Assembly (NCBI GenBank): GCA_963761725.1
Contig: CAVXHP010000006.1
Location: 253,534 to 317,533, forward strand
Length of the DNA: 64,000 nt
Source: an uncultured Cytophagales bacterium
GTDB lineage: Bacteria > Bacteroidota > Bacteroidia > Cytophagales > Bernardetiaceae
Direction: 5' to 3'
Numbering within the stretch: position 1 is the stretch's first letter; every line of letters starts with the position of its first letter. Below are positions 24,274 through 48,452 of the stretch, piece by piece. The notes under the pieces were generated by a model. That model did not search any database. It was not told the origin of the DNA and saw only the letters and a list, made by a program, of their open reading frames with translations. The position numbers and the translations under genes are program-made.

Positions 24274-24810
24274 ATGTCAAAAAAAACTAAACTGATTTTA
24301 TTATTTTTAATGATGACTCTACTACAGTCTTGTAAAAATGATAAGTCAAATACTAATATAGAATTAAAGTTAGATAGCATTTTTATTAATCAACACCAAA
24401 ATAAAGAAATTGAAGGTTTACCCTATGTTTTTTTCTATTATAGTTTTTTCAACAATACAAAAGATACAGTCATTTTAGATTTTAAAATGTTTGCAGACTT
24501 AGAAAATGCTAATTTAGAAAACGCTAGAGATAGAGCCTTTTGTTTGTGTAACAAAGATTCAATAGAGTTATTTACTGATATACTTGATGAATACATAGTT
24601 CCTCCTAATAAAGTACAAGATATTAGATTTGGTATTTCTATTGATTTTTTTACAGATAATAATCTTAAACTAGACACATTAACTTTTTATGCAAATAATT
24701 GTAAAAACATATTCTACATAAATAGTAAAATTATTGAAGACCTTTCCATTAAGCCTAAAATTAGATATAGAGATGTAAATGATACATCAGAAACTCAAAT
24801 TTGGAAATAG
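24274..24810 (+). CDS. Lipoprotein of unknown function
   Basis: A signal peptide with lipobox LLQSC is present. 178 aa. Confidence 0.4.
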   Translation: MSKKTKLILLFLMMTLLQSCKNDKSNTNIELKLDSIFINQHQNKEIEGLPYVFFYYSFFNNTKDTVILDFKMFADLENANLENARDRAFCLCNKDSIELFTDILDEYIVPPNKVQDIRFGISIDFFTDNNLKLDTLTFYANNCKNIFYINSKIIEDLSIKPKIRYRDVNDTSETQIWK

Positions 24811-24869: not shown

Positions 24870-24900
24870 AATCTCATAATTATTATTTTATCAAAATAAA
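24870..24900. repeat. 31-bp direct repeat AATCTCATAATTATTATTTTATCAAAATAAA (left copy; putative attL)
   Basis: It is identical to 40069-40099. It lies 137 bp upstream of the integrase gene. Confidence 0.7.
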
Positions 24901-25036
24901 CAATCTATTGTTTTTTTACTTTTTATGTATAATATGAAAACGCCCCTCAGATATAAATAAGGCACTTTTTAGTCAAAAGAGTTGAATAAGTCAAAGTAGA
25001 ACATAGTGATTTTTTTTACACTATATTTACACCAAG

Positions 25037-26266
25037 ATGTCTTCTATCAAAACTATTTTGTACACACAGAAAAAACTAGCAGACGGACAGTCGCCAGTTA
25101 TGCTTTACGTTTATGAAGAAAAACCTTATCGTCTTTCACTAGGTTACAGAGCTTTTCCGAAAGACTGGGATAATAAGAAAGGGAGGTTTAATAAAAGCCA
25201 TCCTAATGCAAAAGCTAAAAACCTTGAATTACGTAAAAAGGAACTACTTGCTCACGAGCTTGTAGATGATTTTGTCAGAAAAGGAGAACGATTTGATTTC
25301 CCTACTTTCAAAAAAGTATTTAGAGGAGAAAAAGAAGAAAAACAGGAAGAGAAAAAAGAAGTTAATTTTTATGACTTTGTTGAAGAGCTAATTTCTGCTA
25401 AGAAAAAACTTGGAAAAATATCTACTTCAAGAGGTTACAAAGATGTTTACAATATCTTAAAGCGTTACCATCCAAAGCCATTAAAGTTTGAGGATATAAA
25501 CTATTCCTTTCTGAAAAAAATAGAAGCTGAACTATTTGCAATAGGGTCTAAAAAAGGAACTGTCTTTACTCGTATGGCTATACTAAGAGCTATGTATTAT
25601 GAAGGTATTAGATGCAATCACATTTCAAAAGATAAAAACCCCTTTAATAATTCCTTTAAAAAAGACGGATATAATTTTTCAAAATTTAAGTCAGATTTAA
25701 GACCTAGAGCTTTAGATAAAGAAGAGTTAGATAGGTTCAGAAATTTTGATATTAAGAAATATCCAGAGCTATCCTTAGCTTGGTATTATTTTATGTTTTC
25801 TTTCAAGTTGTTTGGGATTAATTTCACAGATATAGCAAAGCTAACAGACGATAATATTAAAGGCACACGTTTGGAGTATGTAAGACAAAAAACAGGTAAA
25901 TCCTTTAGTTTGCTACTAACAAAAGAAACACAAGATATTATAAAAAATTTTAGTTCTGAATCAGATTATCTCTTTCCAGTTCTCAAAAAAGAGAAGCATA
26001 ACACTATTGTAAAAATAAAAAACAAAATAGGTAATACTCAAAAGCAAATCAACGACGATTTGAGACAAATTGCACTAATCCAAGGCATTAGTAAATATAT
26101 CACGTTTTATACAGCTAGACATACTGCTGCAATGGCTTTAAAACGCAAGGGAATAAGCACAGATATTATTTCAGAAGCGTTAGGACACAGCGACTTAGCA
26201 GTTACACAACATTATTTGTCTAAGTTTGATAACAATGTTTTAGATAGTGCTATAATGGACTTGTAG
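25037..26266 (+). CDS. Tyrosine site-specific integrase (Bacteroidota type)
   Basis: An N-terminal arm-binding-like region (ILYTQKKLADGQSPVMLYVYEEKPYRLSLGY) is present. The C-terminal catalytic region is ...ARHTAAMALKRKGISTDIISEALGHSDLAVTQHYL, carrying the R..H..R..Y signature. Confidence 0.85.
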   Translation: MSSIKTILYTQKKLADGQSPVMLYVYEEKPYRLSLGYRAFPKDWDNKKGRFNKSHPNAKAKNLELRKKELLAHELVDDFVRKGERFDFPTFKKVFRGEKEEKQEEKKEVNFYDFVEELISAKKKLGKISTSRGYKDVYNILKRYHPKPLKFEDINYSFLKKIEAELFAIGSKKGTVFTRMAILRAMYYEGIRCNHISKDKNPFNNSFKKDGYNFSKFKSDLRPRALDKEELDRFRNFDIKKYPELSLAWYYFMFSFKLFGINFTDIAKLTDDNIKGTRLEYVRQKTGKSFSLLLTKETQDIIKNFSSESDYLFPVLKKEKHNTIVKIKNKIGNTQKQINDDLRQIALIQGISKYITFYTARHTAAMALKRKGISTDIISEALGHSDLAVTQHYLSKFDNNVLDSAIMDL

Positions 26267-26353
26267 CACTTATTCGGATTCAAATCACTTGAAATATCCA
26301 TTTCTATTTACATACTCTTGAAAATAAATTTTCAAACAAAAATGTAACACAAA

Positions 26354-26668
26354 ATGGATATTTCAAAATTTGGCTGGACACGAAAAGAACAAGAAGTAAA
26401 AACAGGAGATTATCATTTTTCTGGTCGTATTCTTATGACAGCTACTGTTCAAGAGCATTTAGAACAAGAGGTAATACAAGCTATTGTATTTGATGCCTTG
26501 AAATTTGCAAAAGAACAAAACGGAATAGACTATTTATTAGTCTATCTAAATGCAGAAACAGGCGAAAAGCTATTTTTCATTGATGAATCTACTAAGGCTG
26601 AATTACAGTCTGGTCAAAAGCCACAAGAGTATAATTATGCTACTCTTATGTTTGCAGAAGATTACTAA
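26354..26668 (+). CDS. Hypothetical protein (104 aa)
   Basis: Intact ORF directly downstream of the integrase. No family recognised. Confidence 0.3.
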   Translation: MDISKFGWTRKEQEVKTGDYHFSGRILMTATVQEHLEQEVIQAIVFDALKFAKEQNGIDYLLVYLNAETGEKLFFIDESTKAELQSGQKPQEYNYATLMFAEDY

Positions 26669-26677
26669 AAAAACAAA

Positions 26678-26712
26678 AAGCAAGAACAGATTTGTTCTTG
26701 CTTTTCTTTTAT
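26678..26712. terminator. Bidirectional rho-independent terminator hairpin (GCAAGAACAgattTGTTCTTGC followed by a T-run)
   Basis: It lies between the convergent genes 26354..26668 (+) and 26728..27090 (-). Confidence 0.5.
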
Positions 26713-26727
26713 AAAGAATATTATCTT

Positions 26728-27090
26728 TTATAAGATTCTGGTTCCATCTTCTACTTTAAAAGAAGGCTCTAACAATACAGTTCCTTCTTTTTTACATATA
26801 GCAGCCAATACTAAAACCTCAGATTTCACACCAGCAATCCTTTTTGAAGGGAAATTAATTACAGCAATGATTTGTTTGTTCATTAGGTCTTCAATAGTGT
26901 AATTTTCTGTTATTTGTGCAGAACTATTTTTTACCCCTAACTTTCCAAAGTCAATTTCTAATTTATAAGCTGGTTTACGAGCCTTTGGATTTAGTTCTAC
27001 TGATATTATAGTTCCAGTAAACATTCCAACTTTTAAGAAATCATCAAACTGGATTTCTTGTAAATTTTCTATATTTTGCATTGATTTCAA
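26728..27090 (-). CDS. tRNA-binding-domain protein (CsaA/EMAP-like)
   Basis: 120 aa. The MFTGTIISVELNPKARKPAYKLEIDFG...QIIAVINFPSKRIAGVKSEVLVLAA motif is typical of the tRNA_bind fold. Confidence 0.6.
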   Translation of the reverse strand: MKSMQNIENLQEIQFDDFLKVGMFTGTIISVELNPKARKPAYKLEIDFGKLGVKNSSAQITENYTIEDLMNKQIIAVINFPSKRIAGVKSEVLVLAAICKKEGTVLLEPSFKVEDGTRIL

Positions 27091-27165
27091 AGGTTAAATT
27101 AAATGTTTTAAACAAAAACTCCCCACTACTGACTATCAGTATAGTGAGGAGGATTACTATTTTAA

Positions 27166-28074
27166 CTAATCAAAACCATTAACCAAGCTAAATTCTAAAG
27201 GAATTTCCAAATGCTCCTCTAAAGAATCAAACTTGAAAGAAGGGTGTTTTTCGCTTTTTGGTCTTCTCGTGAAGAAAAGAATCATATCTCGCCACGCTTC
27301 TAAGTTTTCGTCGTGTGGATTCAATGCAGATACTGAATGTTTCAATTCGCTATCTACAATAATAAGGGTATCTAAAAAATGCCAATGTTGGCACTTACCT
27401 ATAACAAATCTAGGGTCTGTTTTATCCCAAGATACGCCTATTTGTTGCTTTTCATTATGTACTTCTGATATTGCAGAGTTCTTTTTCATATTACTAGAAC
27501 GAATAAACGTAGTCATAGTATGCTCTACTCCATCGCTATGAACCCCCTCTTTTGCAGGTTCTCCAATATGGTCTTTATTAGTGATAGTACGAAGCTGAAA
27601 AACTGTTGATACCCAACACATTACATCTTTTTGCAAGTTTGAACGAAGTTTTACATCCACGCTGCTAATAATGATAGCCTTAAATTTCATTAGAGCTTGA
27701 AATGCAGTGTTACATTGTAAATTATCTTGAATCCCTCTAAAATGACGCAACATACCTGCATCATCTCTGACAAAATCTTCATCCTCAGAAAGAACAAAAG
27801 GTTGAAATTTTAGTCTAGAAACTTTCTCTTCTTGTAGGTTAATAAGAAAACGACCATTACGAGACTTTCTAAACGGAAGAGTTGGGTCTTCTCCCAAATC
27901 TTGGTTAGCATATTGAAGATTAGACAAATCTTCCTCACTTGCACCTAAAAAGCGTAGGATAGTTTCAATCTTCCATCCTTGAATAAAAACAAATCTGTTT
28001 TTTTCATAATTTTCCTTAATCTCCATTAGGTATTTCCCAACAGGAGTTACTTTTGACATCAAATTTGTACTCAT
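27166..28074 (-). CDS. Hypothetical protein, possibly an Fe(II)/2-oxoglutarate-dependent oxygenase-like fold
   Basis: HSD...(45 aa)...HWH spacing is reminiscent of a His-x-Asp...His facial triad. This is a weak assignment. Confidence 0.25.
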   Translation of the reverse strand: MSTNLMSKVTPVGKYLMEIKENYEKNRFVFIQGWKIETILRFLGASEEDLSNLQYANQDLGEDPTLPFRKSRNGRFLINLQEEKVSRLKFQPFVLSEDEDFVRDDAGMLRHFRGIQDNLQCNTAFQALMKFKAIIISSVDVKLRSNLQKDVMCWVSTVFQLRTITNKDHIGEPAKEGVHSDGVEHTMTTFIRSSNMKKNSAISEVHNEKQQIGVSWDKTDPRFVIGKCQHWHFLDTLIIVDSELKHSVSALNPHDENLEAWRDMILFFTRRPKSEKHPSFKFDSLEEHLEIPLEFSLVNGFD

Positions 28075-28427
28075 AGTATTAGTTATTTTGTTTGAGTATA
28101 AAATAATATTGCGTTTGACTGTCTAATCATTAAAAAAGGTCTAGGTAGTCTTTAAGTTATTTTGTACTACCCAGTGTCGTAAATGTATCCTATTTACGGC
28201 ACTTTTTTTATGTGAAAAAGATAACAAACAACAATGCATCACAAACGTTAGTAATGTTATCATAAATATAAGTTATATTTTTTATTTAGGCAAATTATTT
28301 GATATAATAACTAACAAAAATCACGAATTTTTTTTTCGCAATAGTTTCTACATAAAATATATATTGCTATTATAGCTTACAATTTTGTAGTTTTGCAAAA
28401 AATCACAGCACTAAAACATAATTTATA

Positions 28428-29546
28428 GTGAGAAATAATACAACAAACGTTAGGAATATCTTATCTCTTTGGTTAGGTGTATTCCTTAGTAGGATGAGAC
28501 AACAAAGGAGTATTTCAGCTAATGACCTTAGTACGACAATGAAATTTTCTACTCCTTATTTACGTATGGTGGAAAATGGTCTTACCAACATAGCCCCAGC
28601 AAGAGCATTAGATGTATTGATAGGTTTTACAGACTTATTCAGTTTGAATGGTTACTTGTCATCACTTAGTAATTACTTAGTTGCTGTACAGTATCTATCA
28701 ACTTATGATGACGTAAAAAGCACAAAAGCTGCATTACAAGATTTGAAAGATGCAGATAAAGGTTTAGAAAAATTACTTTCAAATATTAATGATATACATT
28801 GGAAATATTTGGAAGAACAAGATTATGATGAACTAAAGAATAGTTTTGGAAAAAAGCCATTTGTTGAAGAGTTAGAAAAATATTTGACTAATCCATATTA
28901 TGCCCTTAATCAAGTAGATGGAATTGCTCAAAATTGGGCAGACTTATATGGTAAAACACCTTCACTATTTCAAGATTTTCTATATAGAAGATACAATTCA
29001 ATAAAAAACGACATAGAAGACTTAATCTCATACTCTCAATATTATAGCTTATCAGATTGGGAAGATAATAATGAAAAAATGATAGTAAAGTGTTTGGGGA
29101 TTACAAGAAGTATAGACCACTTACTATTAGATTCAGATAAGTTTAAGTGGAGCTTTTTGAAAAATAAAAGTTTTAAAAGTCTGAAATGTATAATATTTGA
29201 GCCGTACAATTCCCTTAAGGAAGATAAACTATTCAGTATAATTTCAGAACAATGCCAAATACCTATTGACAAAGCAAGACAACTTATTAATTTGGTTACA
29301 CTTCCCTCGGATGAGGTAGAGTATATTTGTAATCACTTACCAAGGTATACAAAAAGTTTAAATATAGATTACTGGCTTTATGAATTAAAGAACACAAATA
29401 AAATAGGTTTCTGTATTACTTTTCAAGATAGTTTACCTATAGAACTTAGTAAGCAATATTTAAACTATACTCTATATGATACTTCAGAGATTTTGAGTAA
29501 TGATGAAATACGAGAAATATTTACGATAATAAATCAATATTTATGA
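28428..29546 (+). CDS. XRE-type HTH regulator with a large C-terminal domain of unknown function
   Basis: The N-terminal RQQRSISANDLSTTMKFSTPYLRMVENGLTNI is a Cro/C1-like HTH. The track start is GTG at 28428. An alternative ATG lies at ~28494. The stop overlaps the next gene (ATGA). Confidence 0.45.
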   Translation: MRNNTTNVRNILSLWLGVFLSRMRQQRSISANDLSTTMKFSTPYLRMVENGLTNIAPARALDVLIGFTDLFSLNGYLSSLSNYLVAVQYLSTYDDVKSTKAALQDLKDADKGLEKLLSNINDIHWKYLEEQDYDELKNSFGKKPFVEELEKYLTNPYYALNQVDGIAQNWADLYGKTPSLFQDFLYRRYNSIKNDIEDLISYSQYYSLSDWEDNNEKMIVKCLGITRSIDHLLLDSDKFKWSFLKNKSFKSLKCIIFEPYNSLKEDKLFSIISEQCQIPIDKARQLINLVTLPSDEVEYICNHLPRYTKSLNIDYWLYELKNTNKIGFCITFQDSLPIELSKQYLNYTLYDTSEILSNDEIREIFTIINQYL

Positions 29547-30355
29547 AAGCCAAAATATTATTAGAAACTACTGAGAGTAGTATGCATCTAATAGCTAAAG
29601 AGTTTGGAACTCCAATCTTTGTTAGAAAAAATAAAATACTTAATCTCATATCTGATGTTGTCAGAGTAAAAGCAAACTTATTATACCAAGAAATTGAACT
29701 AAATGGAAATTTCCATTGTGATAATCTTACAGTTGAGAAAGTAAAAGTGTATGGTCTACTTGGCAAAACTAGTAATAGCATAAAAACTAATCTTTTACTA
29801 ACAAAAGACATAAAATTATATACTACATTGCCAGTATTGTCAGTCGGTAATAAGGTAATTATCTCATTTTCTAATTTACAGTTTACATCTAAGAATCAAA
29901 GAGTACTAGACCTTGATGATATACCTAAAGATAAATCTAGCCTTATTAATTTCTGTAAAGTATGTAGAGATAACTGTTGTGTATTAGGTAAAGTAAATGT
30001 AACAGAAGAGGAGTATAGAAAAATTTATGAATATACAGGACGAGGAGATTACTTTTTACGCAATGAAGATGGTGTTAGGCAAATTGACAATGAAAAGGGT
30101 AAATATTGTCGTTTTTTTGATAAAGAAAAAAAACTTTGCTCAATTCAACATATCAAACCAATTGAATGTAAAAGTTACCCAGTTTATTTTGGAGAGAAAG
30201 GTTCAATAAAAAATTTTTCAATCTATACTGGATGTCCTGCAAAAAGCTTTTTGACTGAAAAATATGTTTTACAGGCAAAAAAAGAGCTAGAGAAAATACC
30301 TAAGCAAGACAGAGAAAAATATTATGAGATTACTAAAAAACTGGGACAACTATGA
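29543..30355 (+). CDS. YkgJ-family putative Zn/Fe-chelating (CxxCxxCC) protein
   Basis: The CKVCRDNCC motif is present, plus a downstream cysteine cluster (CRFF...KLCSIQHIKPIECKSYPVYF). Its TGA stop overlaps the potA-like start. Confidence 0.5.
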   Translation: MKAKILLETTESSMHLIAKEFGTPIFVRKNKILNLISDVVRVKANLLYQEIELNGNFHCDNLTVEKVKVYGLLGKTSNSIKTNLLLTKDIKLYTTLPVLSVGNKVIISFSNLQFTSKNQRVLDLDDIPKDKSSLINFCKVCRDNCCVLGKVNVTEEEYRKIYEYTGRGDYFLRNEDGVRQIDNEKGKYCRFFDKEKKLCSIQHIKPIECKSYPVYFGEKGSIKNFSIYTGCPAKSFLTEKYVLQAKKELEKIPKQDREKYYEITKKLGQL

Positions 30356-31443
30356 TATTAGAACTATCAAATATAACAAAGCGTTTTCCTAAGACATTGG
30401 CAGTAGATAATATTTCTCTACAAGTTCAGGCTAATGACCACTTTTTCATTTTAGGCTCTAGTGGATGTGGAAAGAGTACGCTTTTAAATATGATAGCAGG
30501 TTTTATTAAACCTGATAAAGGAATTATAAAATTAGATGGAAATATAATAAATGAAATTTTACCTAATAAACGCCCTATTCATACTGTTTTTCAAGATTAT
30601 GCTCTTTTTCCTCATTTAAATGTATTTGAAAATATAGCATTTAGTTTAAAAGTTCAAAAAGTAAATAAGAGTAATATAAAACATAGAGTGGGAGAGATGC
30701 TAGAACTAGTTAAATTAAGTGGCTTTGAACTCCGTAGAGTTAATGACCTTAGTGGAGGAGAAAAACAAAGAATTGCATTAGCTAGAGCTTTAATAAATCG
30801 TCCTTTAATACTACTCTTAGATGAACCACTTTCTGCTTTAGATTCTAAATTGAAGCGTGAAATGATTGTAGATTTACAAAAAATCAAAAGAGATATTAAT
30901 TGTACATTCATTCACGTAACTCACGACCAATCAGAAGCTCTAAGTTTAGGGGATAAAATTGCAATAATGAGTAAGGGTAAAGTAATACAAGTAGATTCTC
31001 CTATGAACATTTATCAAAAACCTACTACTCATTTTACAGCTTCTTTTATGGGGAAAATAAATACTTTTGAAATAAATAATATATTTAATCGTAGTAATAG
31101 TATTTATATAGGGAAAGCCAAAGATGGTAGTTTATTTTCTTTTGTCTCTGATAAAAAGATTGAAAAAACTGTTTTACTTGGTATTAGACCAGAAAATATT
31201 ATTGTTAGCAAAATAAAAAATAAATCTTTGTTACCTGATTTCTCCTTAGAGAAAAATAAATTGATAGGAAAAATACTATTACAATCCTTTCAAGGTAGTG
31301 ATATTGAATATACATTATTAACATCAATAGGAGAGTTTATAGTGCGAGTTCCTTTAAGTAAAGTAGCAGATTTTAAAACTGAGGAAGAGCTTTTACTTGA
31401 GTGGGAGACTGAATCTTCAATAGTTCTAAATAAAAATGTATAA
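30352..31443 (+). CDS. potA: ABC transporter ATP-binding protein, PotA-like (spermidine/putrescine-type importer)
   Basis: Walker A (GSSGCGKST), the signature LSGGEKQRIALARAL, Walker B (LLLDEP) and a C-terminal TOBE-like extension are present. Confidence 0.7.
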   Translation: MILELSNITKRFPKTLAVDNISLQVQANDHFFILGSSGCGKSTLLNMIAGFIKPDKGIIKLDGNIINEILPNKRPIHTVFQDYALFPHLNVFENIAFSLKVQKVNKSNIKHRVGEMLELVKLSGFELRRVNDLSGGEKQRIALARALINRPLILLLDEPLSALDSKLKREMIVDLQKIKRDINCTFIHVTHDQSEALSLGDKIAIMSKGKVIQVDSPMNIYQKPTTHFTASFMGKINTFEINNIFNRSNSIYIGKAKDGSLFSFVSDKKIEKTVLLGIRPENIIVSKIKNKSLLPDFSLEKNKLIGKILLQSFQGSDIEYTLLTSIGEFIVRVPLSKVADFKTEEELLLEWETESSIVLNKNV

Positions 31444-32279
31444 TGAAAAAAATAAAAGTAAGTTGGATAAATAAAATACTGATATTTCCTTCTGGACTTT
31501 GGATAACAGCATTTTTTTTGATGCCCTTTTTTGTAGTTTTTATTTATACGTTTTTTAGTAGGGGTATTTATGGTAACATTGAGTACAACATCAATATAAA
31601 TAATTATTATAGAGCTTTTGAGTTTGTGTATGCTACATCTTTTTTTCGTTCATTAATATATGCTATACTCACTAGTTTAATAACTTTATTAATTGGATAT
31701 CCTGTTGCATATTGCATAGTTAAAATTTCAAATTTAAAGGTTAAAAGACTACTATTATTTCTTATAATACTTCCTTTTTGGTCAAATTATATTGCGAGAA
31801 TATATGCTTGGGCTATGCTACTGAGTGATAAAGGAATAGTATATCAATTACTATTTGAGTTAAATTTGATAGAAGAAAATCTAAGTATCTTATACTCATC
31901 AAACGCAGTTTATATTGGTCTAATTCATAATTATCTACCTTTTATGATACTATCAATATATGTCGCATTAGAAAACATAGATAAAAGGATATTAAATGCT
32001 TCCTATGATTTAGGTGCATCATTTAGTTACTCATTTATGAGAATTATACTACCCTTGTCTTATAGTGGAATTAGAAATGGATGTATAATGGTATTTAGTT
32101 TTGCAATAGCTGACTACGTAATACCTAACATACTTGGAGGTTCTAAAAAACTTCTAATAAGCAATGTAATTTCTAACCAGTTTATTACAACTAGAGATAT
32201 TCCTTTCGGTGCTACTTTAACAGTCTTATTCACTATTTTAGTATTTGCAATGATATATTACTTATATAAAAAAAATTAA
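31443..32279 (+). CDS. potB: ABC transporter permease, PotB-like
   Basis: Six TM segments and an EAA-like loop (NASYDLGASFSYSFMRIILPLS) are present. Confidence 0.6.
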   Translation: MKKIKVSWINKILIFPSGLWITAFFLMPFFVVFIYTFFSRGIYGNIEYNININNYYRAFEFVYATSFFRSLIYAILTSLITLLIGYPVAYCIVKISNLKVKRLLLFLIILPFWSNYIARIYAWAMLLSDKGIVYQLLFELNLIEENLSILYSSNAVYIGLIHNYLPFMILSIYVALENIDKRILNASYDLGASFSYSFMRIILPLSYSGIRNGCIMVFSFAIADYVIPNILGGSKKLLISNVISNQFITTRDIPFGATLTVLFTILVFAMIYYLYKKN

Positions 32280-32281
32280 AA

Positions 32282-33061
32282 ATGTTTGTAATGAATAAAA
32301 CCTTATCTATATATACATTCCTAATAATAAGTTTCTTATACATTCCTATAATTATACTAGCTATATATTCATTCAGTTCTGACCCCTATTCTATTTCTTT
32401 AAATAGTTTTTCTTTAGATGCATACATAGATTTATATAATGATAGAAGTTTTATATCAGCAATATGGAATAGTGTCATCGTAGCAATAATAGCATCTACA
32501 TTAGCTATAACTATTACAATTCCATTAGTTTATATTTTACACAAAAAGAAAAATATTATAGCGATAACAATAAAGAGTGTGTCCAAGTGGATTTTAATAG
32601 TGCCAGATATAAGTGTTGCTATTGGCATAATGATTTTATTTAAAGCTCTCAACTTCAATAGAGGTTTAGAAACAATTATTATTTCTCATACTACATTTTC
32701 TATAGCATATACAATACTAATAATTGAACCACATATTGAAAGTATTGTACCAAAATTAACAAATGCTGCGATGGATTTAGGTGCAACCGAAATACAAGTT
32801 ATTACAAGTATAATCATACCCTTGATAACTCCCAATTTAATAGTTGCTTTTTGTATTAATTTTACGTTATCTTGGGACGACTTTATTTTTTCTTTTTTCA
32901 ATTCAAGTGCAGGAAATTCTACTCTTTCTGTTTATATTTACACTCTTATAAAAAAAGGTGCTAATCCATCAATCAATGCTATATCTATCATATCTATGAT
33001 TGTATCATTGATTTTTATTACTATTAGCATAAAATTTCAAAGAATTTTGAACAAAATTTAA
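32282..33061 (+). CDS. potC: ABC transporter permease, PotC-like
   Basis: Six TM segments and an EAA-like loop (AAMDLGATEIQVITSIIIPL) are present. Confidence 0.6.
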   Translation: MFVMNKTLSIYTFLIISFLYIPIIILAIYSFSSDPYSISLNSFSLDAYIDLYNDRSFISAIWNSVIVAIIASTLAITITIPLVYILHKKKNIIAITIKSVSKWILIVPDISVAIGIMILFKALNFNRGLETIIISHTTFSIAYTILIIEPHIESIVPKLTNAAMDLGATEIQVITSIIIPLITPNLIVAFCINFTLSWDDFIFSFFNSSAGNSTLSVYIYTLIKKGANPSINAISIISMIVSLIFITISIKFQRILNKI

Positions 33062-33066
33062 CAATT

Positions 33067-34111
33067 ATGTTGAAGCATATAAAACATAGCCTATTTATAA
33101 CCATACTTTTCATTTTTGGAGGTTGTTCTTTTCGACAACAACAATAATAAAGAAAAAACAGACGAATTCATAAACGTCTATAATTGGACATATGTTATTC
33201 CTTCTGAGGTAATTACAGATTTTGAAAAAACATATCATGTGAAAGTAAATTATGATAATTACTCTTCTAATGAAGAATTATTAGCTAAAATACAAAGCCC
33301 ATCACATAATTACGATTTAATTTTTCCTAGTGATTATATGGTGCAAATAATGATAAAACAAGATTTATTAGCACCATTGAATTACAGTAATATTCCTAAT
33401 TCAGAAAATATTTCAGACGATTTTAAAGGCTTATTTTTTGACCCTAAAGATAAATATAGCATACCTTTTGAATGGTCTACAGCAGGTATTAGTGTCAATA
33501 CTAATAAAGTTCAGAATTACAATAAGTCGTGGGATATACTATTTGATGAAAAGTTTAAGAATGATGTAACAGTGTTAGATGACATGAGGTATGGTATTTT
33601 ACCAGCTATATTTAAGCTAGGTTACAATCCAAACACAAAGGAAGAAGACGAGATTAATAAAGCAAAAGAATTGATGTTTAAACAAAAAGAATTTGTTAAA
33701 GCATATAGTAGTGATACTTATATTGATATGCTAAAAAAAGAAGAAGTTGCTATTGCTTATGGTTGGAGTATAGACTTATTAAAAATCCAAAAGGAAAAAC
33801 CACACATTCGTTATTTTATTCCCAAAGAAGGTTCTACAAAAATTATAGAATTGATGTGTATTCCAAAAGAATCTAAAAGAAAAGGTTTAGCAGAAAAGTT
33901 TATTAATTACATACTAATTCCAGAGATTCACGCTAAAATCTCTAACTATTCAATGGCAACAAACCCTAATGAGAAGGCAAAACCTTTTATAAACGAAAAT
34001 TATAGAAGTATTAGTGATAGCGTTGATATGGACAAGCTCTTTTTTCTGAAAGATGTTGGAGACGCAACTATATTTTATGATAATGCTTGGAATGATATAA
34101 AAAATAAGTAA
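33067..34111 (+). pseudogene. potD: PotD/PotF-like periplasmic polyamine-binding lipoprotein; the signal peptide is out of frame with the body
   Basis: The body (33116-34111, TTG start in the track) has PotD-like motifs (VYNWTYVIPSEVITDFEKTYHVKVNYDNYSSNEELLAKI). The lipoprotein signal MLKHIKHSLFITILFIFGGCSF (33067-) is in the -1 frame relative to the body. Removing one T from the T4 run at 33129-33132 joins them. Confidence 0.55.
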
Positions 34112-34257
34112 TGTGATTAAAATTAGTTTTAACTTTTTTAATCAAAATGAACCTACTCCCCCACCAAATAGCCCAAAAGTTATGAGTTTCCGAAAGGACA
34201 ATCTATAATTATAGAAAAAAAATAAAAGGTAAATTCAAAGAAGAGCTAAGAAACGGC

Positions 34258-34737
34258 ATGACTTACCTAGAGTTTGTACCATTTTTAGAGTATGCAAAAT
34301 CACTTGGCAATACCTTTCCGAAAGATTCAGAAATATTTCCGAATATTCAGAAAGAGGCACAAAATGATTCAGAAAAAGTGAAAGAAAACAAGATAGAAAA
34401 GCCAAATTGAAATTTCTGAAATATTTCGGAAAGGGTTGCAGAAGTTTCCGAAAGCAAGGAAAATACCCAAAACCGAAATAAAAAGAAAAAACAGCTAGAA
34501 AATTATAGCAATAATCTAAATGAACAAGTTCAAAAATATGCACTTGCATTTAATGAAGAAAAAGCAGAGAGAAAAGAATTACAAAAAAAATACGATACTT
34601 TAGAAACTAGATTTTTGGATAAGGTAGAAGAAGTAGCTCGTTTTAAATGAAAAACAGCTTTATTCTTTGCACTTTTGGGAGGACTTGCTTTTGCTCTTAC
34701 ACTAATTTTAGTTTACCTACTCTTTCTCAAAACCTAA
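34258..34737 (+). other. 160-codon frame open only if TGA is sense: coiled-coil protein with a C-terminal TM anchor (possible mobilization/partition-like protein)
   Basis: It is a single frame from ATG 34258 to TAA 34735-34737. In-frame TGA codons lie at 34408, 34417 and 34648. There is no in-frame TAA/TAG. The C-terminus KTALFFALLGGLAFALTLILVYLLFLKT is a TM helix. Confidence 0.4.
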
Positions 34738-34814
34738 AGAAAAACAACGTTGTCTTTTTTTATTTTACTATTTTATATATTTTACGCAGCTTAAAGACCA
34801 GTTCAGACCTAGTG

Positions 34815-34912
34815 TTTCAGACTTAAAGATGGAATAAGATAGGTCTAAATAAGAGTATTATGGGGTAAAATATGAATAAATTAGGGTTTAAGATGGAATA
34901 AGATAGGTTCTA
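34815..34912. repeat. Putative iterons: two copies of TTAA(A)GATGGAATAAGATAGGT(C/T)CT spaced ~73 bp apart, 120-220 bp upstream of the Rep_3 gene
   Basis: Direct repeats lie at ~34815-34840 and ~34888-34912. A related copy (CTAAGATGGAATGTTGCATAGG) lies at ~36768-36790. Confidence 0.45.
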
Positions 34913-35034
34913 TATATGAGAAAAATGAGGTTGTTGAAAAAATAAGTATGGAAATAAAAGTTTTCCACTCATATTTTAGCTTGTATTTATGTAAATTTTC
35001 CTTAGATTTTTAGTGTTTAGCTTATCTTACTGCA

Positions 35035-36231
35035 ATGGAAAAAGCCACACAACAGTTAGTAGTAAAGCATAATTATCTGATTAATGCCAAATATGATTTT
35101 TCTCTTTTAGAAATGAAGGTATTTTTGTTAGCCGTTTCTAAAATACAGCCACAAGATAAAACAACTACCAAGTATAGAATTTATGTAAAAGATTTTAAGC
35201 AACTTGTAAACACACAATCTAAGCAGGAATATAAAAGAGTGAAAGCAACCGTTAAAAGTCTAATGAAAAAGATTGTAGAAATACCAAGAGGAGAAGATAA
35301 ATCTGTTTTGATGTGTCAATTATTTTGACCTTCTGTTTACCACGACGGAGAAGGCTATGTAGAAATTCAGTTTTATGAAGAAATAAGAGCTTATTTATTA
35401 GAACTCAAAGAGAGATTTACACAGTATAACCTTCACAATATTGTCAGAATAAAATCCTTTTCCAGTATTAGAATCTATGAATTACTCAAACAGTACGAAA
35501 CGATAGGAAAAAGAACTTTTGAACTTACAGAGCTAAAAAGTATTCTAAAGGTAGAGAAAAAGTATAAATCATACGCTGATTTTAAAAGGTATATTTTAAA
35601 GAGAGCGCAGAAAGAAGTTTGAGCCTATTGTGATATTTCATTTACCTTTAAAGAAATCAAAAAGGGTAGGAGAGTAAATAAATTAGTGTTTTACATCCAA
35701 AGGAAGGAAAAAAAAGATACTCAAAACCCAGTTCAGACCGTCGTAGAAAATGATTTAAGTGCAAAATTTTTGCTTACCCCTAGACAAGTCCGTGAAGTGC
35801 TAAAAAAATATGAGAATGATTTGCTTCATTTAGAGAAAATTCTTTGAGAAATAGCTAAGAAATATAAAACAGGAGAAATAGAAAAATTAGGAGCTTATAC
35901 TTTCAAAACTTTAATAGAAGGAAAACACGAAAAAAGTCTTTTTGATGAAGAAGTCCAAATAGAAAAAGACAAAAAGCAACAGAAGAAAGCAGCAAAGATA
36001 GAAGAACAAAAACAGAGTGAAAAAGATAAACAGAAAACACAAGAAGAAAAAGAGCAGCTAATCACTCAGATAGAAAAAGCACTTTCAGAAGATGAAAAAA
36101 ATAGTTTGGAAGAGGAATTTAAAACTCATATTTCAAAACCTCATTTGCAACAACTAAGCGAACGCCCACGAGGAAAGAAGATATTACGACAAAATTTTTT
36201 GGCTAAAAAGTTCCTATCCGAAGACGATTAA
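35035..36231 (+). pseudogene. Rep_3-family plasmid replication initiator containing three in-frame TGA codons (open only if TGA is sense)
   Basis: The N-terminus VVKHNYLINAKYDFSLLEMKVFLLAVSKIQ is Rep_3-like. So are the core RFTQYNLHNIVRIKSFSSIRIYELLKQYE and KSYADFKRYILKRAQKEV...FTFKEIKKGRRVNKLVF. The frame is continuous from 35035 to TAA 36229-36231. TGA codons lie at 35326, 35620 and 35845. There is no TGG codon in the ORF. Confidence 0.7.
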
Positions 36232-36254
36232 ATTTTATTTTCAACTTTGTTTGA

Positions 36255-36689
36255 ATGGAAAAGACAAAAGCAGATTTTGATTTGCGAAACAAGCAGAAAC
36301 AAAAAATAGAAAAAAGTGATGATTCTATACTTTCAGTTCGTGAATGACAACTTTGGCGATATTATGAGTGAATGAATGTAGGTAACGAACAATCAAAATG
36401 AAGAGAATGAAATTTTAGAAGAGTAGGTTTGATTCTAAACAAAAAAGTAGGTCGTTGAATGGTTCTTATTCTACCTATCACAACAAAATACAAAGAAGAA
36501 CATAGGGTTTACAAACTTCTCATTAAGAACCCTACTCAATACGGACTTTCAAATCCAAGTGCATTTATCTTAAATCGTTTCAACGTTATTTCTACAAAAA
36601 GATTAATTAAGGAAAAATCTGATTCTGTTTTACACTCTAATTTTTTGCAACTTTTGAAGAGGAAAATAATTAGCACTATTCACGAATAA
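36255..36689 (+). pseudogene. MazF/PemK-like toxin gene containing five in-frame TGA codons (open only if TGA is sense)
   Basis: A single frame runs from 36255 to TAA 36687-36689. TGA codons lie at 36345, 36369, 36399, 36408 and 36456. ...VGNEQSK-x-RE-x-NFRRVGLILNKKVGR-x-MVLILPITTKYKEEHRVYKLLIK...ISTKRLI parallels the MazF G-x-E-Q...R-P...P-x-T-T core. Track ORF 36459..36689 is only the tail of this frame. Confidence 0.5.
36624..36670. repeat. ~47-bp direct repeat A (copy 1), core TCTGTTTTACACTCTAATTTTTTGCAACTT
   Basis: The same 30-bp core plus a similar tail recurs at 39182-39228. Together they bracket the nuclease cassette. Confidence 0.6.
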
Positions 36690-36879
36690 AGAAATACATC
36701 ATTATTTATTTTTCTCTAATATTAAATTAGCAACTTTTTAGATTATTTGAACTTAATTACCATTTCTAAGATGGAATGTTGCATAGGGTGGATAGTTATA
36801 AGAATATTTTGTAGAAATAATGTTATATTTGATTAGAGTTAGTGTTAACAAATTTACTTACAAATAACGTGCATTATAA

Positions 36880-38241
36880 ATGATTATAGTTAGACCTAGG
36901 TTGAATGATTATCATAACATTCCATTCACACAAGAAGAAGTAGATTTTGCAATTCCTTATTTGAATGAAGATATACCTTTATATGTTGATCCATTTTTAT
37001 TGTGGAAATCTCCATCACTTCAAGATAATTCTTTGCATACAGTTATCATCAACTCATTTAATCATCTTGGTCATTTAGTTAATACAAATAAAGAAGACAA
37101 AGCTATTGATATTCTGGTACAAACAAGTGAATGTAATGAAGTTGGAATGGGTAATTCAAAAACAAGAATAGGAAAACCAATAGGACATAAAACAGCTAAA
37201 GAAATATTGAATTTATTTATAAATATTCCTCAGTTAAAAAGCTCTGGTTTCGTCCATTTTGAAAGTATTCAACTACTTGTTAATGGTATTTCAAAGGATA
37301 GAATTAGTGATTTTACTACTAGCTTTATTAAATCTTTTCTAATAGATTATACAATAGAACAATGTGAAAAATATCACATACCTATTCATTCTGTAAAAAT
37401 AGAATCACTTTATAGTTACAAAGAAAATTCTATAATTTCAGAGAACGTTTATTTACCTACGAATCCTGAAAATAACTCTCCTATTTTGTTTGTTCCAAAA
37501 AGATGGTTAAGATTCATTCCTTGGATAAATTTTGATGACTACTATAAAACCTTTCAATTAAAAGATACACAACAACAAAAAGATAGAATTCCATTATTGA
37601 ATTACAATAGACAGAATTTCGATGCTGTTATGGCTTATGTAAAAATTAAGGAAAGTGAAAGAAAATTATGTAAAAATGACTTGATATTTAAGCCTATTTC
37701 AAAGACTTCTGTTACTAGAAAGGTAAATACAATTATTAAACTAGATACAGGCAAGACAAATAATGCTGATATTGAATTTGAAAAAAATATTTGTTCTGTA
37801 CTTCCTACGACATTCTTTCCATATTTGGATTTTGCTGAAGCACAAAGTAGAACTGTAGATGGAGTACATATAAGAGATTTAATATTTTATAATAATCGTT
37901 CTCACTCTTTCCTTGAGGAAATATATGAACAGTATGAATGTAAACAGATTATTTTTGAACTAAAGAATGTTAAGGAGCTAAGTAATGAACACGTAAATCA
38001 ACTGAATAGATACTTAAAAGAGCAATTTGGTAAATTTGGTGTTTTAGTAACGAGAAGCCCTCCATCTAAGAAAGTCCTGAAAAACATAATAAATTTATGG
38101 TCAGGTCAGCGAAAATGTATTTTAGTTCTTACAGATGAAGACATGAAATTAATAGGCAGTCTTTATCAAGGAAATCAAAGACCAGCCATTGATATTTTAA
38201 AGAAAAAATATGTAGAGTTTACAAGAGATTGTCCATCCTAA
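36880..38241 (+). CDS. 453-aa protein with an unknown N-terminal domain and a C-terminal Mrr-like PD-(D/E)xK restriction-endonuclease-like domain
   Basis: The C-terminal region TVDGVHIRDLIFYNN...QIIFELKNVKELSNEHVNQLNRYLKEQFGKFGVLVTRSPPSKKV matches the hydrophobic-D ... hydrophobic-ExK ... vLvT layout of the Mrr_cat/PD-(D/E)xK fold. This is a motif-level call. Confidence 0.45.
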   Translation: MIIVRPRLNDYHNIPFTQEEVDFAIPYLNEDIPLYVDPFLLWKSPSLQDNSLHTVIINSFNHLGHLVNTNKEDKAIDILVQTSECNEVGMGNSKTRIGKPIGHKTAKEILNLFINIPQLKSSGFVHFESIQLLVNGISKDRISDFTTSFIKSFLIDYTIEQCEKYHIPIHSVKIESLYSYKENSIISENVYLPTNPENNSPILFVPKRWLRFIPWINFDDYYKTFQLKDTQQQKDRIPLLNYNRQNFDAVMAYVKIKESERKLCKNDLIFKPISKTSVTRKVNTIIKLDTGKTNNADIEFEKNICSVLPTTFFPYLDFAEAQSRTVDGVHIRDLIFYNNRSHSFLEEIYEQYECKQIIFELKNVKELSNEHVNQLNRYLKEQFGKFGVLVTRSPPSKKVLKNIINLWSGQRKCILVLTDEDMKLIGSLYQGNQRPAIDILKKKYVEFTRDCPS

Positions 38242-38253
38242 ATTTTAAACTAG

Positions 38254-38649
38254 ATGAATGAAGAGCAAATTAACAATTTTGAGAAATGTCAGACACAAAT
38301 TGAAGGATTATTATCTGAGATAGGTTTATTATCTAAGAAAAATCCTAATGATGCAGTAAATAAATTCAAACTTATTTTTATTAATGAATTAATTACGAAT
38401 GCTAACATAATTCTGACTTCTGACTATATGCCTTTCAAATCGTTCAATGATTTTGATGTAGATTCTGTCCCCTCTAATAGTGATGTTACTTTCATCCTAT
38501 CACAATATCTAAATTGTTTTGAGAAACTAAGAGCAGATAATATATACTGTAAGTCTGAATACATAGGAGGTAAATACCATAATAATTGGTATTGGAGAAC
38601 AGGTAATAAAAAATTAATAGCTACTTCACAACCAAACAAAATAAAATGA
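38254..38649 (+). CDS. Small protein A (131 aa), paralogous to the next gene
   Basis: It shares KKNP-D..NKFK...PSNSD...QY...R...W blocks with 38646..39062. It starts 13 nt after the nuclease-domain gene. Confidence 0.4.
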   Translation: MNEEQINNFEKCQTQIEGLLSEIGLLSKKNPNDAVNKFKLIFINELITNANIILTSDYMPFKSFNDFDVDSVPSNSDVTFILSQYLNCFEKLRADNIYCKSEYIGGKYHNNWYWRTGNKKLIATSQPNKIK

Positions 38650-39062
38650 AAAATAACAAAAAAAATGAAAAAGATTTATTTCCTTCTCAAGAAGAAGTAG
38701 ATAAATTCAAAATGTTAGAAGGTTTAATTGAATCTATTACTTTAGAAATGAAGGAATTTGCTAAGAAGAAGCCTGATGAAACATTGAATAAGTTTAAGAC
38801 TAATACAATAAATAATATTCTAAAAGACTTGAAAGAAATCATGAGAAAGGAAGCTACCAATGATTATCTTGTTTTATTAGATAAAGATGTTTTACCATCT
38901 AATAGTGATGCTGTGATTGTCATAGGACAATATAACTCAGCAATATCTCAATTTAGAGCAAAATATAATGGTAAAACAGACGAATATTCGTTACAACGTT
39001 GGTTCACACAAGAAAATCCAGGAACTCATTATAAGCAAAGAGGTTTATTAGATGGGTTGTAA
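38646..39062 (+). CDS. Small protein B (138 aa), paralog of 38254..38649
   Basis: Its start overlaps the preceding stop (ATGA). The paralog pair shares conserved KKKPDETLNKFK and PSNSD blocks. Confidence 0.4.
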   Translation: MKNNKKNEKDLFPSQEEVDKFKMLEGLIESITLEMKEFAKKKPDETLNKFKTNTINNILKDLKEIMRKEATNDYLVLLDKDVLPSNSDAVIVIGQYNSAISQFRAKYNGKTDEYSLQRWFTQENPGTHYKQRGLLDGL

Positions 39063-39181
39063 GTTTTATTTTAGTTAAAAATTATAAGCTACATCTATTA
39101 ATTTAGTGGTAGCTTTTTTTATATAAGTAACCATATTGTTAGCAAATAAAAAACATTTAATTTATTATAATTGAATCTCCT

Positions 39182-39228
39182 TCTGTTTTACACTCTAATT
39201 TTTTGCAACTTCTCAAAAGGAAAAATTT
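39182..39228. repeat. ~47-bp direct repeat A (copy 2)
   Basis: Matches 36624-36670. Confidence 0.6.
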
Positions 39229-39233
39229 CATTT

Positions 39234-39294
39234 AAAAAAATCGCCTACTCACACTAAGGAGAGTAGGAAGCTGGAGACTCAAATTAAGGTCTCT
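39234..39294. repeat. Repeat R (copy 1): AAAAAAATCGCCTACTCACACTAAGGAGAGTAGGAAGCTGGAGACTC plus a second small hairpin
   Basis: A 7-bp stem hairpin CCTACTC/GAGTAGG with an AAGGA-containing loop. A ~48-nt match lies at 39978-40027. Confidence 0.55.
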
Positions 39295-39442
39295 ATGGCA
39301 TTTGCTTTTAAGCTAATGCCTATGAAAATAGCTTATTGATTTTTAAAGAAAGATCAAGTTTTTATTATTTCTACTTATTTACAACTTAATGCTCTAATTG
39401 TCGTACTCATATAGAAGATTTTTTTAATTAAACCTTACTATT

Positions 39443-39778
39443 ATGTCAATAAGAAATGTATTAAGCATAAACTATAGCTTTACACAAGAACAAGAAGAAA
39501 TGATTAATTCTGAAATTCATAAACACGCTAAAGAAAATGCAGGTTTTCTAAGTAAATACTCTGTTGAGTTTAAGTCTGTTAAAATCACTGGGAATAAAAA
39601 TGGAGATTTTATTACTCTTAAAGGGAGTGGTACTGTACAAGGGCATATCACAAAAAGTAGTAATTCTAATTATACCCAAGAGGGTGTAGAGGAAAAAACA
39701 GCATACTTTAATTTTGATGTTTCCATAGATGAAGAAGATGAAATAGTGGTTGAATCTAATAGCACAACTTATATCTAA
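39443..39778 (+). CDS. Hypothetical protein (111 aa)
   Basis: Intact ORF bracketed by the R repeats and followed by a terminator hairpin. Confidence 0.3.
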   Translation: MSIRNVLSINYSFTQEQEEMINSEIHKHAKENAGFLSKYSVEFKSVKITGNKNGDFITLKGSGTVQGHITKSSNSNYTQEGVEEKTAYFNFDVSIDEEDEIVVESNSTTYI

Positions 39779-39796
39779 ATATGTTCTTTTTACTAA

Positions 39797-39840
39797 AAAT
39801 AGCCATTCATAATCAAAAATTATGAGTGGCTATTTTTCAT
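39797..39840 (+). terminator. Rho-independent terminator (ATAGCCATTCATAA...TTATGAGTGGCTAT followed by TTTT)
   Basis: A near-perfect 14-bp stem plus a T-run lies directly after 39443..39778. Confidence 0.5.
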
Positions 39841-39977
39841 TTTATAGGCATTGAAAGTATTAATGATTTATTTCATTTTTCAATTCAGAAAAGAAGTTGA
39901 ATTTATTTTGTCTTTTGGTTTTTTGCCTTTCGGTTCGCTCGTGGAAAAAGAAGAAAAGGAATAGCGAAATGTTGTTT

Positions 39978-40027
39978 AAAAAAAATTGCCTACTCACACT
40001 AAGGAGAGTAGGATGTTGGAGACTCTG
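39978..40027. repeat. Repeat R (copy 2)
   Basis: Matches 39234-39280. It lies ~40 bp before the right-hand att repeat. Confidence 0.55.
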
Positions 40028-40068
40028 CCTTTGTTAGTATTCCCACCAACGATATTTTCAATATTTCT

Positions 40069-40099
40069 AATCTCATAATTATTATTTTATCAAAATAAA
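40069..40099. repeat. 31-bp direct repeat (right copy; putative attR)
   Basis: Identical to 24870-24900. It lies 57 bp upstream of the sucD start. Confidence 0.7.
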
Positions 40100-42486: not shown

Positions 42487-42600
42487 ATGGGTTGGTTTGT
42501 GCGCCCATGCATCAAACTTGTCTTGTTCTTCTTGAAATGGATTTTTTGCATTAATTTTTTTGTCTGTATCTTTTATCCATTTTATGGTGTCATTTATTAT

Positions 42601-42897
42601 CTAAGTGGTCAAAGATTCATTTTCTTTGGCAAGTTTAATAAGCGTTTGATTTTCAAAAATGGTATCTAATGTTTTTCTTAGATATGCAAAATAAGAAGAT
42701 TGAAATTCTTCTTTGTTTATCCCTTCTTCTCCTAATTGATTATATTCACTTTCATTATGTTTACTACTTTCTCCTTTCAGAATTGAATATAAATAAAACA
42801 CCAAAAACTTGCGTGTTGGTTTGTCTAATACTTTTCCAAAATCTATAAAACGGCTAAAGGTAAGTTCTAATTCTTCGTAAGAAATCATGTTCTTCAT
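42601..42897 (-). CDS. Hypothetical protein (98 aa)
   Basis: ORF upstream of the VWA gene. No family recognised. Confidence 0.25.
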   Translation of the reverse strand: MKNMISYEELELTFSRFIDFGKVLDKPTRKFLVFYLYSILKGESSKHNESEYNQLGEEGINKEEFQSSYFAYLRKTLDTIFENQTLIKLAKENESLTT

Positions 42898-43465: not shown

Positions 43466-43466
43466 T

Positions 43467-43745: not shown

Positions 43746-43809
43746 TTTTTAATAAAATTAATGTGTAATTATTCAACGAATTAAGTAATCAAAACGTTTT
43801 ACTCTGTTT

Positions 43810-48326: not shown

Positions 48327-48452
48327 TTTATGAAAAAAGCATTTGTAGTTCAAAAGGCTTGCCTTTGACTATATTCTTTTTTTGGTATATTTGTGCTATT
48401 AAAACAGTATTGAAAAACAAGTAGAAGACAATTTTAAAAGAGAAAATAAATT

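Follow-up and report, generated by a model that had tools for sequence, protein, structure and literature searches.

How does a bacterial chromosome come to carry, in good condition, a set of plasmid genes that its own genetic code cannot read? This question is raised by a 15.2-kb segment, positions 24870-40099 of a 64,000-nucleotide stretch (the window, below) of contig CAVXHP010000006.1, which belongs to an assembly of an uncultured member of the Cytophagales (GCA_963761725.1). The segment is a genomic island between the genes def and sucD, and it encloses a plasmid module of 2.5 kb with a Rep_3 replication initiator (Rep) and a toxin gene, in which every interrupted reading frame is interrupted by TGA and by no other stop triplet. 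Two further islands carry this module, one in the Cytophagales metagenome-assembled genome (MAG) MFD03250.bin.2.105 and one in the complete genome of the isolate Bernardetia sp. OM2101 (CP170094), and are called CY and OM in the following.

The module occupies positions 34147-36689 and lies on the plus strand. Its left boundary is the first codon of orfA (34147-34737, 196 codons), whose predicted product has an N-terminal helix-turn-helix (HTH), a coiled coil and a C-terminal membrane helix. A putative origin region (34738-35034) separates orfA from the gene of the Rep_3 initiator (35035-36231, 398 codons, TAA stop), which is followed by a PemK/MazF-like toxin gene (36255-36689, 144 codons; PemK_toxin match, MazF-like in PHROG). 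The module has 12 in-frame TGA triplets, four in orfA, three in rep (35326-35328, 35620-35622 and 35845-35847) and five in the toxin gene, and neither TAA, TAG nor a frameshift over about 740 codons, and all three genes stop at TAA. That all 12 in-frame stops are TGA is not due to chance, because TGA makes up only 29% of the stop triplets in the other two frames of the same stretch. When TGA is read through, Rep yields complete Rep3_N (E 7e-40) and Rep3_C (E 3e-16) domains. Under the bacterial code 11, reading ends at codon 97 in Rep, at codon 30 in the toxin and at codon 12 in orfA, and Rep is reduced to an open Rep3_N fragment of 97 aa that lacks the intact WH1 and WH2 pair.

The host evidently reads TGA as a termination signal: 7 of 34 long open reading frames (ORFs) outside the island, including def, end in TGA, and most stop-to-stop ORFs there have no internal TGA, a few (among them 4354-5544, 7733-8638 and 43675-44430) excepted. 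The long ORFs listed for the rest of the island are without internal TGA as well; the shorter orf104 and orf111 were taken from the code-11 ORF list. Since TGA is a stop for this host, the module should be silent here, and that the host would be unable to translate it is, as far as the code itself can tell, firmly shown. The original prediction, made from the letters of the window, had seen an iteron/Rep_3/toxin backbone, which cannot be upheld as an expressible plasmid backbone: the genes are open only under code 25, in which TGA specifies glycine, and the candidate iterons are only two 22-nt repeats 64 bp apart (34823-34844 and 34887-34908) plus a short TTCAGAC pair. No antitoxin gene was seen adjacent to the toxin gene, which starts 23 bp after the rep stop and has no small ORF as its neighbour.

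The meaning of TGA in these frames can be read from its alignment with homologs. A word-index search with the toxin, X being placed at the TGA sites, returned no homologs; they were obtained by an exhaustive search with the TGA-free C-terminal 76 residues only, so that the TGA columns had no part in their retrieval. The residues of the two homologs at the five TGA columns are G/G, TGA/G, G/G, G/S and G/H. In Bacillus EndoA, the first of these columns is occupied by the conserved glycine of the 'RGD' motif. With glycine at the TGA sites the toxin reaches 26.1 bits against PemK_toxin, with tryptophan 21.3, the gathering cut-off being 23.1. The HTH models likewise prefer glycine in orfA, by about 3-8 bits (HTH_23: 21.2 versus 12.7), all scores lying below the gathering scores. 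The toxin's tryptophan codon is TGG. Translation of TGA as tryptophan (code 4) was considered and ruled out: the only cases of 'W' at TGA columns among database proteins (P0001 and P0138) stem from TGA codons called under that code.

The nearest relatives of the module stand on recoded DNA. The closest Rep (P0001, 53% identity) is encoded on contigs of 3-10 kb (L003-L005 and L020), most ORFs of which have in-frame TGA, and in two of these code-25 plasmids, L003 and L020, a homolog of orfA lies upstream of rep with a TGA at the same column of the HTH turn. Glycine codons and TGA are interchanged among these sequences. The invariant Rep column G107 is TGA in L020, and GGA in L003 and the window; the glycine of 'KL[G]AY' in Rep is TGA in L003, GGA in the window and G in most homologs; and the orfA positions 'RN[G]' and 'LL[G]G' show the same exchange of GGN and TGA. 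In L003, TGA also occupies positions which we take to be conserved glycines of Fic ('SxxxEG') and MerR ('GY..Y'), a weak point of the comparison: scores with glycine and tryptophan are 66.4 and 64.0 for MerR_1, 37.8 and 38.1 for a shorter MerR model, and identical for Fic. The toxin homolog on a 135-kb, chromosome-sized contig (L015; ENA ERZ26858972 contig_18) comes from DNA of a TGA-recoded organism, in which TGA amounts to 2.6% of the codons and TAA or TAG is the stop of every called gene whose end falls in the 20-kb locus. The same contig also holds a giant ORF of more than 4000 aa.

Because the TGA columns align with conserved glycines and because relatives swap GGN for TGA, the module is firmly shown to be, by all that its alignments indicate, written in genetic code 25. 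This code, translation table 25, is known from Gracilibacteria and Absconditabacteria only (PMC10746230; PMC13092985). The 10.1-kb contig L020 (Logan SRR33677550) is a mosaic in itself, with four TGA-free ORFs (58-405, 669-1181, 2302-3108 and 8555-9427), while its other long ORFs, among them orfA, rep and the gene of an ATPase that has a TraG-D_C coupling-protein domain, contain 1-12 sense TGAs each. Plasmids of this family may commonly combine the two codes.

A silent module should be free to decay, and the three integrated copies (window, CY and OM) were compared for the ratio of non-synonymous to synonymous substitution rates (dN/dS) by the Nei-Gojobori method. The whole rep gene has a dN/dS of 0.05-0.08 (dS 0.21-0.27), and the part after the first TGA, 0.064-0.088 (dS 0.21-0.26). 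Each pair of copies differs in rep by 41-52 synonymous and 10-20 non-synonymous changes, with no indel in 1.2 kb. On the terminal branches the respective counts are 21 and 3 for the window, 17 and 5 for CY, and 26 and 10 for OM. Values are somewhat higher in the 159 codons of orfA from the internal ATG at 34258 (0.16-0.21, dS 0.19-0.28) and in the toxin (0.17-0.29, dS 0.11-0.21). The three TGAs of rep are kept in all three islands, and so are those of the other genes, one toxin TGA that has become TAA or TAG in CY excepted. For comparison, flanking host genes have a dN/dS of 0.07-0.23 at a dS of 0.34-0.74, the dS of the element being 0.2-0.44. The substitution pattern shows that the module frames have evolved under strong purifying selection, which by its codon signature acted at the protein level, and Rep is constrained as strongly as a housekeeping gene despite the predicted stop of its translation at codon 97 in these hosts. 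We infer that the frames were read as protein through most of the divergence of the three copies, which would have required cells in which UGA means glycine.

The island that surrounds the module is of a conventional kind. The 31-bp sequence AATCTCATAATTATTATTTTATCAAAATAAA has two exact plus-strand copies in the window, at 24870-24900 and 40069-40099, as the original prediction had stated; no third copy exists in the window even if three mismatches are allowed, the chance expectation being 0 (100 shuffles), and beyond the left end of the copies a weaker similarity continues for some 14 bp (45 nt, 87%). The left copy is the attL core, with the native attB flank on its left and element DNA on its right; the right copy, the attR core, ends 56 bp upstream of the sucD start codon (ATG at 40156). 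A clean empty site is present in a Flexibacter sp. MAG (L006), whose left flank corresponds to the sequence left of attL and whose right flank corresponds to that right of attR in the window. A second one (L002) comes from the same ENA sample as an occupied contig: its flanks are 98-99% identical to the window and def is followed by sucD with a single core copy, the occupied contig itself being 99.8-99.9% identical to the window (L001, L011 and L019). In CY the two core copies are 9.3 kb apart, and OM has a near-identical integrase at the same locus. The crossover lies in 29-31 identical bases overlapping the region just upstream of sucD. A 25-nt core of the repeat, compared with 185,579 species genomes (one genome per species, the window's own complete genome lying outside the scan), was found in only two Cytophagales relatives, L006 and CY, both at the def-sucD locus; two single chance matches occurred elsewhere, in Streptococcus and in an archaeon.

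These comparisons support the earlier proposal of an integrated element with att-type direct repeats upstream of sucD rather than at a tRNA gene, for which a single repeat copy in related genomes and a repeat not dispersed among unrelated loci had been expected. It is firmly shown that the 15.2-kb segment is a site-specific, integrase-borne genomic island with a non-tRNA attB in the def-sucD intergenic region, and that the island is polymorphic within the species and common to Bernardetia-like species with turnover of its cargo. The attB, attL and attR sites at this locus form, to judge from their alignment, the classical pattern. The host, a marine gliding bacterium, is a Bernardetia-like member of the Cytophagales (Bacteroidota), because its def and integrase proteins cluster with Bernardetia proteins and a gene for the gliding lipoprotein GldD lies downstream.

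The backbone common to the three islands consists of the left arm, the integrase gene and orf104 (together 24901-26668), the plasmid module (34147-36667, 92-94% identical between islands) and the right arm, all on the plus strand. The left (P') arm (24901-25036) is near-identical after the core in the window, CY and OM. The tyrosine integrase gene (25037-26266, 409 aa, TAG stop) has no in-frame TGA, and its product matches Arm-DNA-bind_5, Phage_int_SAM_5 and Phage_integrase in Pfam and the integrase category in PHROG. It had rightly been assigned to the Bacteroidota type; the gene starts 136 bp after the left repeat copy. The conserved gene orf104 (26354-26668) follows. The right (P) arm (39787-40068) is conserved in CY over its whole length up to attR and in OM, whose locus ends before attR, over the first approximately 184 bp (39787-39970); it contains D1b (39960-40025), one of the two copies of a repeat discussed below. 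Cargo varies at two slots, between orf104 and orfA and downstream of the toxin.

Bernardetia sp. OM2101 has a protein at least 90% identical to the island integrase, and the integrase genes of the window and OM have a dN/dS of 0.063 at a dS of 0.44. More distant integrase relatives (50-56% identity) are encoded on Cytophagales contigs, each beginning some 150 bp upstream of int, that carry other defence-like or transporter cargo and, as far as their DNA is available, no Rep. This integrase family is thus a mark of ordinary Cytophagales islands. The island has no mobilization or relaxase genes that could be found.

The reading that we favour, and to which we give somewhat better than an even chance, is that of an element with two kinds of hosts, which integrates into Cytophagales chromosomes and whose replicon is maintained in code-25 cells, the life cycle itself being an extrapolation from the sequences. 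The backbone would spend, or until very recently would have spent, most of its time as a plasmid in Gracilibacteria or Absconditabacteria. There every backbone gene would be readable, and the cargo genes that terminate in TGA would become only 2-17 residues longer. The TGA-free and hence code-neutral integrase would insert the element into Cytophagales chromosomes, in which only the TGA-free genes (integrase, cargo and defence) would be expressed. The differing codes would then serve as a switch, replication and toxin remaining off as long as the element is integrated. Whether the element is a true dual-code shuttle, that is, a plasmid of code-25 bacteria belonging to the Candidate Phyla Radiation (CPR) that integrates into Cytophagales (Bernardetia) partners and whose expression is partitioned between the two cells by the code, is a more tentative matter, and we regard it as possible rather than likely. 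If true, it would be the first direct genomic link from a code-25 lineage to a cultivable host genus.

Several observations speak against an element with two kinds of hosts. Neither a free circular form nor an attP junction was found in the JGI metagenomes, which were searched with the Rep peptide and with attL/attP DNA patterns; Rep had no match in IMG/VR; and full-length calls of this Rep are absent from the protein collection, in which just the integrated copies occur. No taxon is on record for the code-25 relatives L003, L015 and L020. All cargo, including a defence cassette common to CY and OM, is without in-frame TGA and was therefore acquired in standard-code cells, which fits poorly with a plasmid that lives mainly in code-25 cells. 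The kin of the integrase are integrases of Cytophagales islands and not known code-25 genes. In the literature we found no paper that links Bernardetia with Gracilibacteria, and no physical or ecological link to a code-25 organism. The dS of the element is about two- to three-fold below that of the host, which leaves some room for an old vertical presence with loss. In PLSDB, only short matches of 70-90% were obtained, within rep genes of Chondrinema and Emticicia plasmids.

The main rival to a replicon maintained in code-25 cells is conditional decoding of UGA in the Cytophagales host itself, which we consider improbable. A suppressor tRNA from the chromosome, from another element or from a recoded phage would decode TGA, and Rep and toxin would be made only then, which would lead to phage-triggered replication of the island or to abortive infection. 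Such read-through would account for the purifying selection on the TGA-containing frames, for the fact that residence, gain of cargo and integrase are all tied to Cytophagales, and for a toxin without visible antitoxin beside defence cassettes. Against this stands that neither the window nor any of the related island loci yielded a tRNA gene, and that genes with three to five TGAs each could be read only if suppression were efficient in competition with release factor 2 (RF2). The known recoded phages, moreover, read TGA as tryptophan or TAG as glutamine, not TGA as glycine. The glycine columns, together with nearest relatives on mostly or wholly recoded contigs, point to a true code-25 origin and not to a purpose-built sensor. 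The existence of recoded phages in standard-code hosts, on the other hand, is documented (bioRxiv 10.1101/2021.08.26.457843).

Alternatively, the module might be a dead relic, captured once as a fragment of a code-25 plasmid and since carried passively as untranslatable DNA. A single capture is suggested by module boundaries that are identical in all three islands, no free form is known from the JGI metagenomes or IMG/VR, and the CY copy is indeed decaying, having lost an internal part of int and acquired frameshifts in orfA, besides the toxin TGA that turned into TAA or TAG. Passive DNA, however, is expected to have a dN/dS near 1 and to accumulate TAA and TAG stops and indels, and Rep shows the opposite on each terminal branch. 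Between the window and CY, the origin region differs by 15%, near the synonymous rate, as against a dN of 0.01-0.02 in Rep. The substitution pattern contradicts a relic, which is strongly disfavoured and which we regard as unlikely, even more so than conditional decoding. The least probable explanation, that of an artefact or pseudogenes, can be dismissed: several of the assemblies are metagenomic, but a chimera with reads of a CPR plasmid would not recur with the same junctions in three independent assemblies, including the complete isolate genome of OM2101, and in two contigs of another strain; decay of TGG to TGA is at odds with TGA columns that align with glycine, not tryptophan; and selenocysteine is inconsistent with 12 sites over three genes and with an Rfam scan of the island that gave no match at the gathering score of any family.

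The cargo of the first slot in the window begins with two genes on the minus strand: one for a CsaA-like protein with a tRNA-binding domain (26728-27090; Pfam tRNA_bind, NCBIfam NF007494 and TIGR02222 above their cut-offs), which is absent from the CY and OM islands, and one for a 2OG-Fe (2-oxoglutarate- and iron-dependent) dioxygenase (27166-28074; PF10014, E 9e-46). On the plus strand follow a gene with TGA stop for a 372-aa protein with a weak N-terminal HTH (28428-29546; HTH_31 E 0.0025, below the gathering score, and PADLOC HTH_VI E 4e-4), a gene, likewise with TGA stop, for a CxxCxxCC (YkgJ-type) metal-binding protein (29543-30355; PF03692, 30.2 bits versus a cut-off of 23), and four genes of an ATP-binding cassette (ABC) importer (30352-31443, 31443-32279, 32282-33061 and 33116-34111; in Pfam ABC_tran, two BPD_transp_1 and SBP_bac_8). 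The best NCBIfam models of the latter are PotA, PotB, PotC and PotD/F, all scoring under the equivalog cut-offs (333 versus 482 for PotA, 221 versus 348 for PotB, 165 versus 326 for PotC and 141 versus 582 for PotD). The importer is therefore named, by its domain matches, a Pot-like ABC importer, and the scores fall short of an identity as spermidine/putrescine PotABCD. Compared with contig_18618, the window contains an additional T at 33129, close to where the PotD-like gene starts, and the predicted protein has 331 aa in place of 347 aa, with a shortened N-terminus; this indel may reflect either a true frameshift or a sequencing error in a homopolymer. At the same slot OM has thyA, AAA_28 and Ham1 genes, and CY has others.

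The second slot of the window holds a PDC-M36 cassette, consisting of PDC-M36A (36880-38241, PD-(D/E)XK / DUF8370; PADLOC E 1e-220, Pfam PDDEXK_3) and two PDC-M36B paralogs (38254-38649 and 38646-39062; PADLOC E 3e-50 and 1e-36), all on the plus strand. The cassette lies between 51-bp repeats that duplicate the 3' end of the toxin gene: the copy D2a (36616-36666) recurs with 90% identity as D2b at 39174-39224. D2b and D1a (39174-39280) represent what is left of the original 3' end of the toxin gene and, after it, a 66-nt repeat with a hairpin, D1, the two copies of which flank orf111 (39443-39778, plus strand). This ORF, which has no family matches, occupies the variable slot that D1a and the right arm enclose. 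The toxin 3' end continues directly into the D1 hairpin sequence in CY and OM; both have a cassette of the cyclic-oligonucleotide-based anti-phage signalling system (CBASS; Cap15 and CD-NTase) at this slot, the cyclase with a dN/dS of 0.13 between them, and no PDC-M36. With these assignments, the HTH-YkgJ-potABCD-like operon and the tRNA-binding-domain protein of the original prediction are borne out by Pfam and NCBIfam, and its nuclease-domain cassette, thought to be possibly defensive, is identified by PADLOC as PDC-M36, a computational candidate system. The A and the two B proteins match the candidate over their full length; its role in defence here is a prediction, and no paper on PDC-M36 was found in the literature.

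The surroundings of the island differ among close relatives in ways of their own. A gene for a predicted lipoprotein of 178 aa (24274-24810) is situated between def and attL in the window. On account of its absence from L002 it was considered as part of the island or as an older remnant and rejected, given that L006, CY and OM have def directly followed by the attB flank; absent from these and from L002, it is therefore a separate, lineage-specific insertion outside the island. L002 has in its place 85 bp of unrelated, TTCGTAATT-rich sequence. In the OM locus (L013), genes for an AraC-type regulator and a short-chain dehydrogenase/reductase (SDR) occupy 7827-9864 between def and attL, and 53 bp left of the attL core resemble the right arm of the island (87% to window 40047-40099), which suggests that this attB received a second element, now in tandem or a remnant.

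Further away, an IS5-family transposase gene (22195-23088; NCBIfam NF033580 above cut-off) is shared by the window and contig_18618 and absent from L002, which in turn has a DDE_3 transposase insertion (8505-9667) just downstream of sucD that is absent from the window. A VWA/CoxE-like gene on the minus strand (41206-42897) encodes 563 aa in L001 and is interrupted by TAA in the window, which at 42603 has A where contig_18618 has G (CAA to TAA on the coding strand). The histidyl-tRNA synthetase gene (48450-49872) is split into two overlapping ORFs, one catalytic and one anticodon-binding, and is likewise split in L001 and L002 (237 aa and 217 aa). A DUF3368 (PIN-like) and UPF0175 gene pair (42980-43744), which adjoins the GldD lipoprotein gene, looks like a chromosomal toxin-antitoxin pair.

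An alternative code is usually seen as a barrier to gene flow, and here a code-25 block stands in three standard-code genomes, one of them a cultured isolate. Either there is regular transfer of DNA between Cytophagales and code-25 bacteria, or the Cytophagales concerned are able, in certain conditions, to read UGA as glycine; neither has been described before. If the first is true, the uncultivated Gracilibacteria and Absconditabacteria gain a candidate host genus, and a difference in genetic code can, in nature, switch the expression of a mobile element. Annotation under the standard code fragments such genes and thereby hides similar cases.

As an island, the element is a new and in itself ordinary member of the class of Bacteroidota integrase islands and integrative mobilizable elements (for example of the NBU1/NBU2 type). 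It shares with them an end-located tyrosine integrase of the Arm-DNA-bind_5 / SAM_5 / catalytic type, direct repeats equal to attB, variable and defence-rich cargo, and presence or absence among close strains. In contrast to them, it targets an intergenic promoter region upstream of sucD and not the 3' end of a tRNA gene, it lacks identifiable mobilization or relaxase genes, and its Rep_3 module is unreadable in the code of the host. Integrative plasmids of actinomycetes such as pSAM2 and SLP1 likewise unite a site-specific integrase and a plasmid replication initiator in one element; both functions work in one host there, whereas the island joins a code-neutral integrase to a replicon that can be read under code 25 only.

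The known recoded phages read TAG as glutamine or TGA as tryptophan and often bring suppressor tRNAs. The island differs from them in being non-viral, in the use of TGA for glycine, in that no tRNA was found and in that its nearest relatives are on recoded contigs. The likeness to recoded phages of standard-code hosts (bioRxiv 10.1101/2021.08.26.457843) lies in sense-read in-frame stops within a mobile element of a standard-code host, and in a recoding limited to a functional subset of genes with a possible role as expression switch. Our literature search found no report of a chromosomal island that mixes code-neutral genes with a code-25 replicon under selection. A further parallel is offered by phages for which interactions with code-25 CPR bacteria as well as standard-code bacteria have been predicted (Liu et al. 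2023, PMC10746230): of nine such phages of Gracilibacteria, five are co-targeted by Bacteroidetes spacers, and TGA is avoided in phage genes needed in both hosts. In most of those phages the avoidance of in-frame TGA extends over the whole genome, whereas the island combines TGA-free genes with a block dense in sense TGAs and is physically integrated in the chromosome of the standard-code partner.

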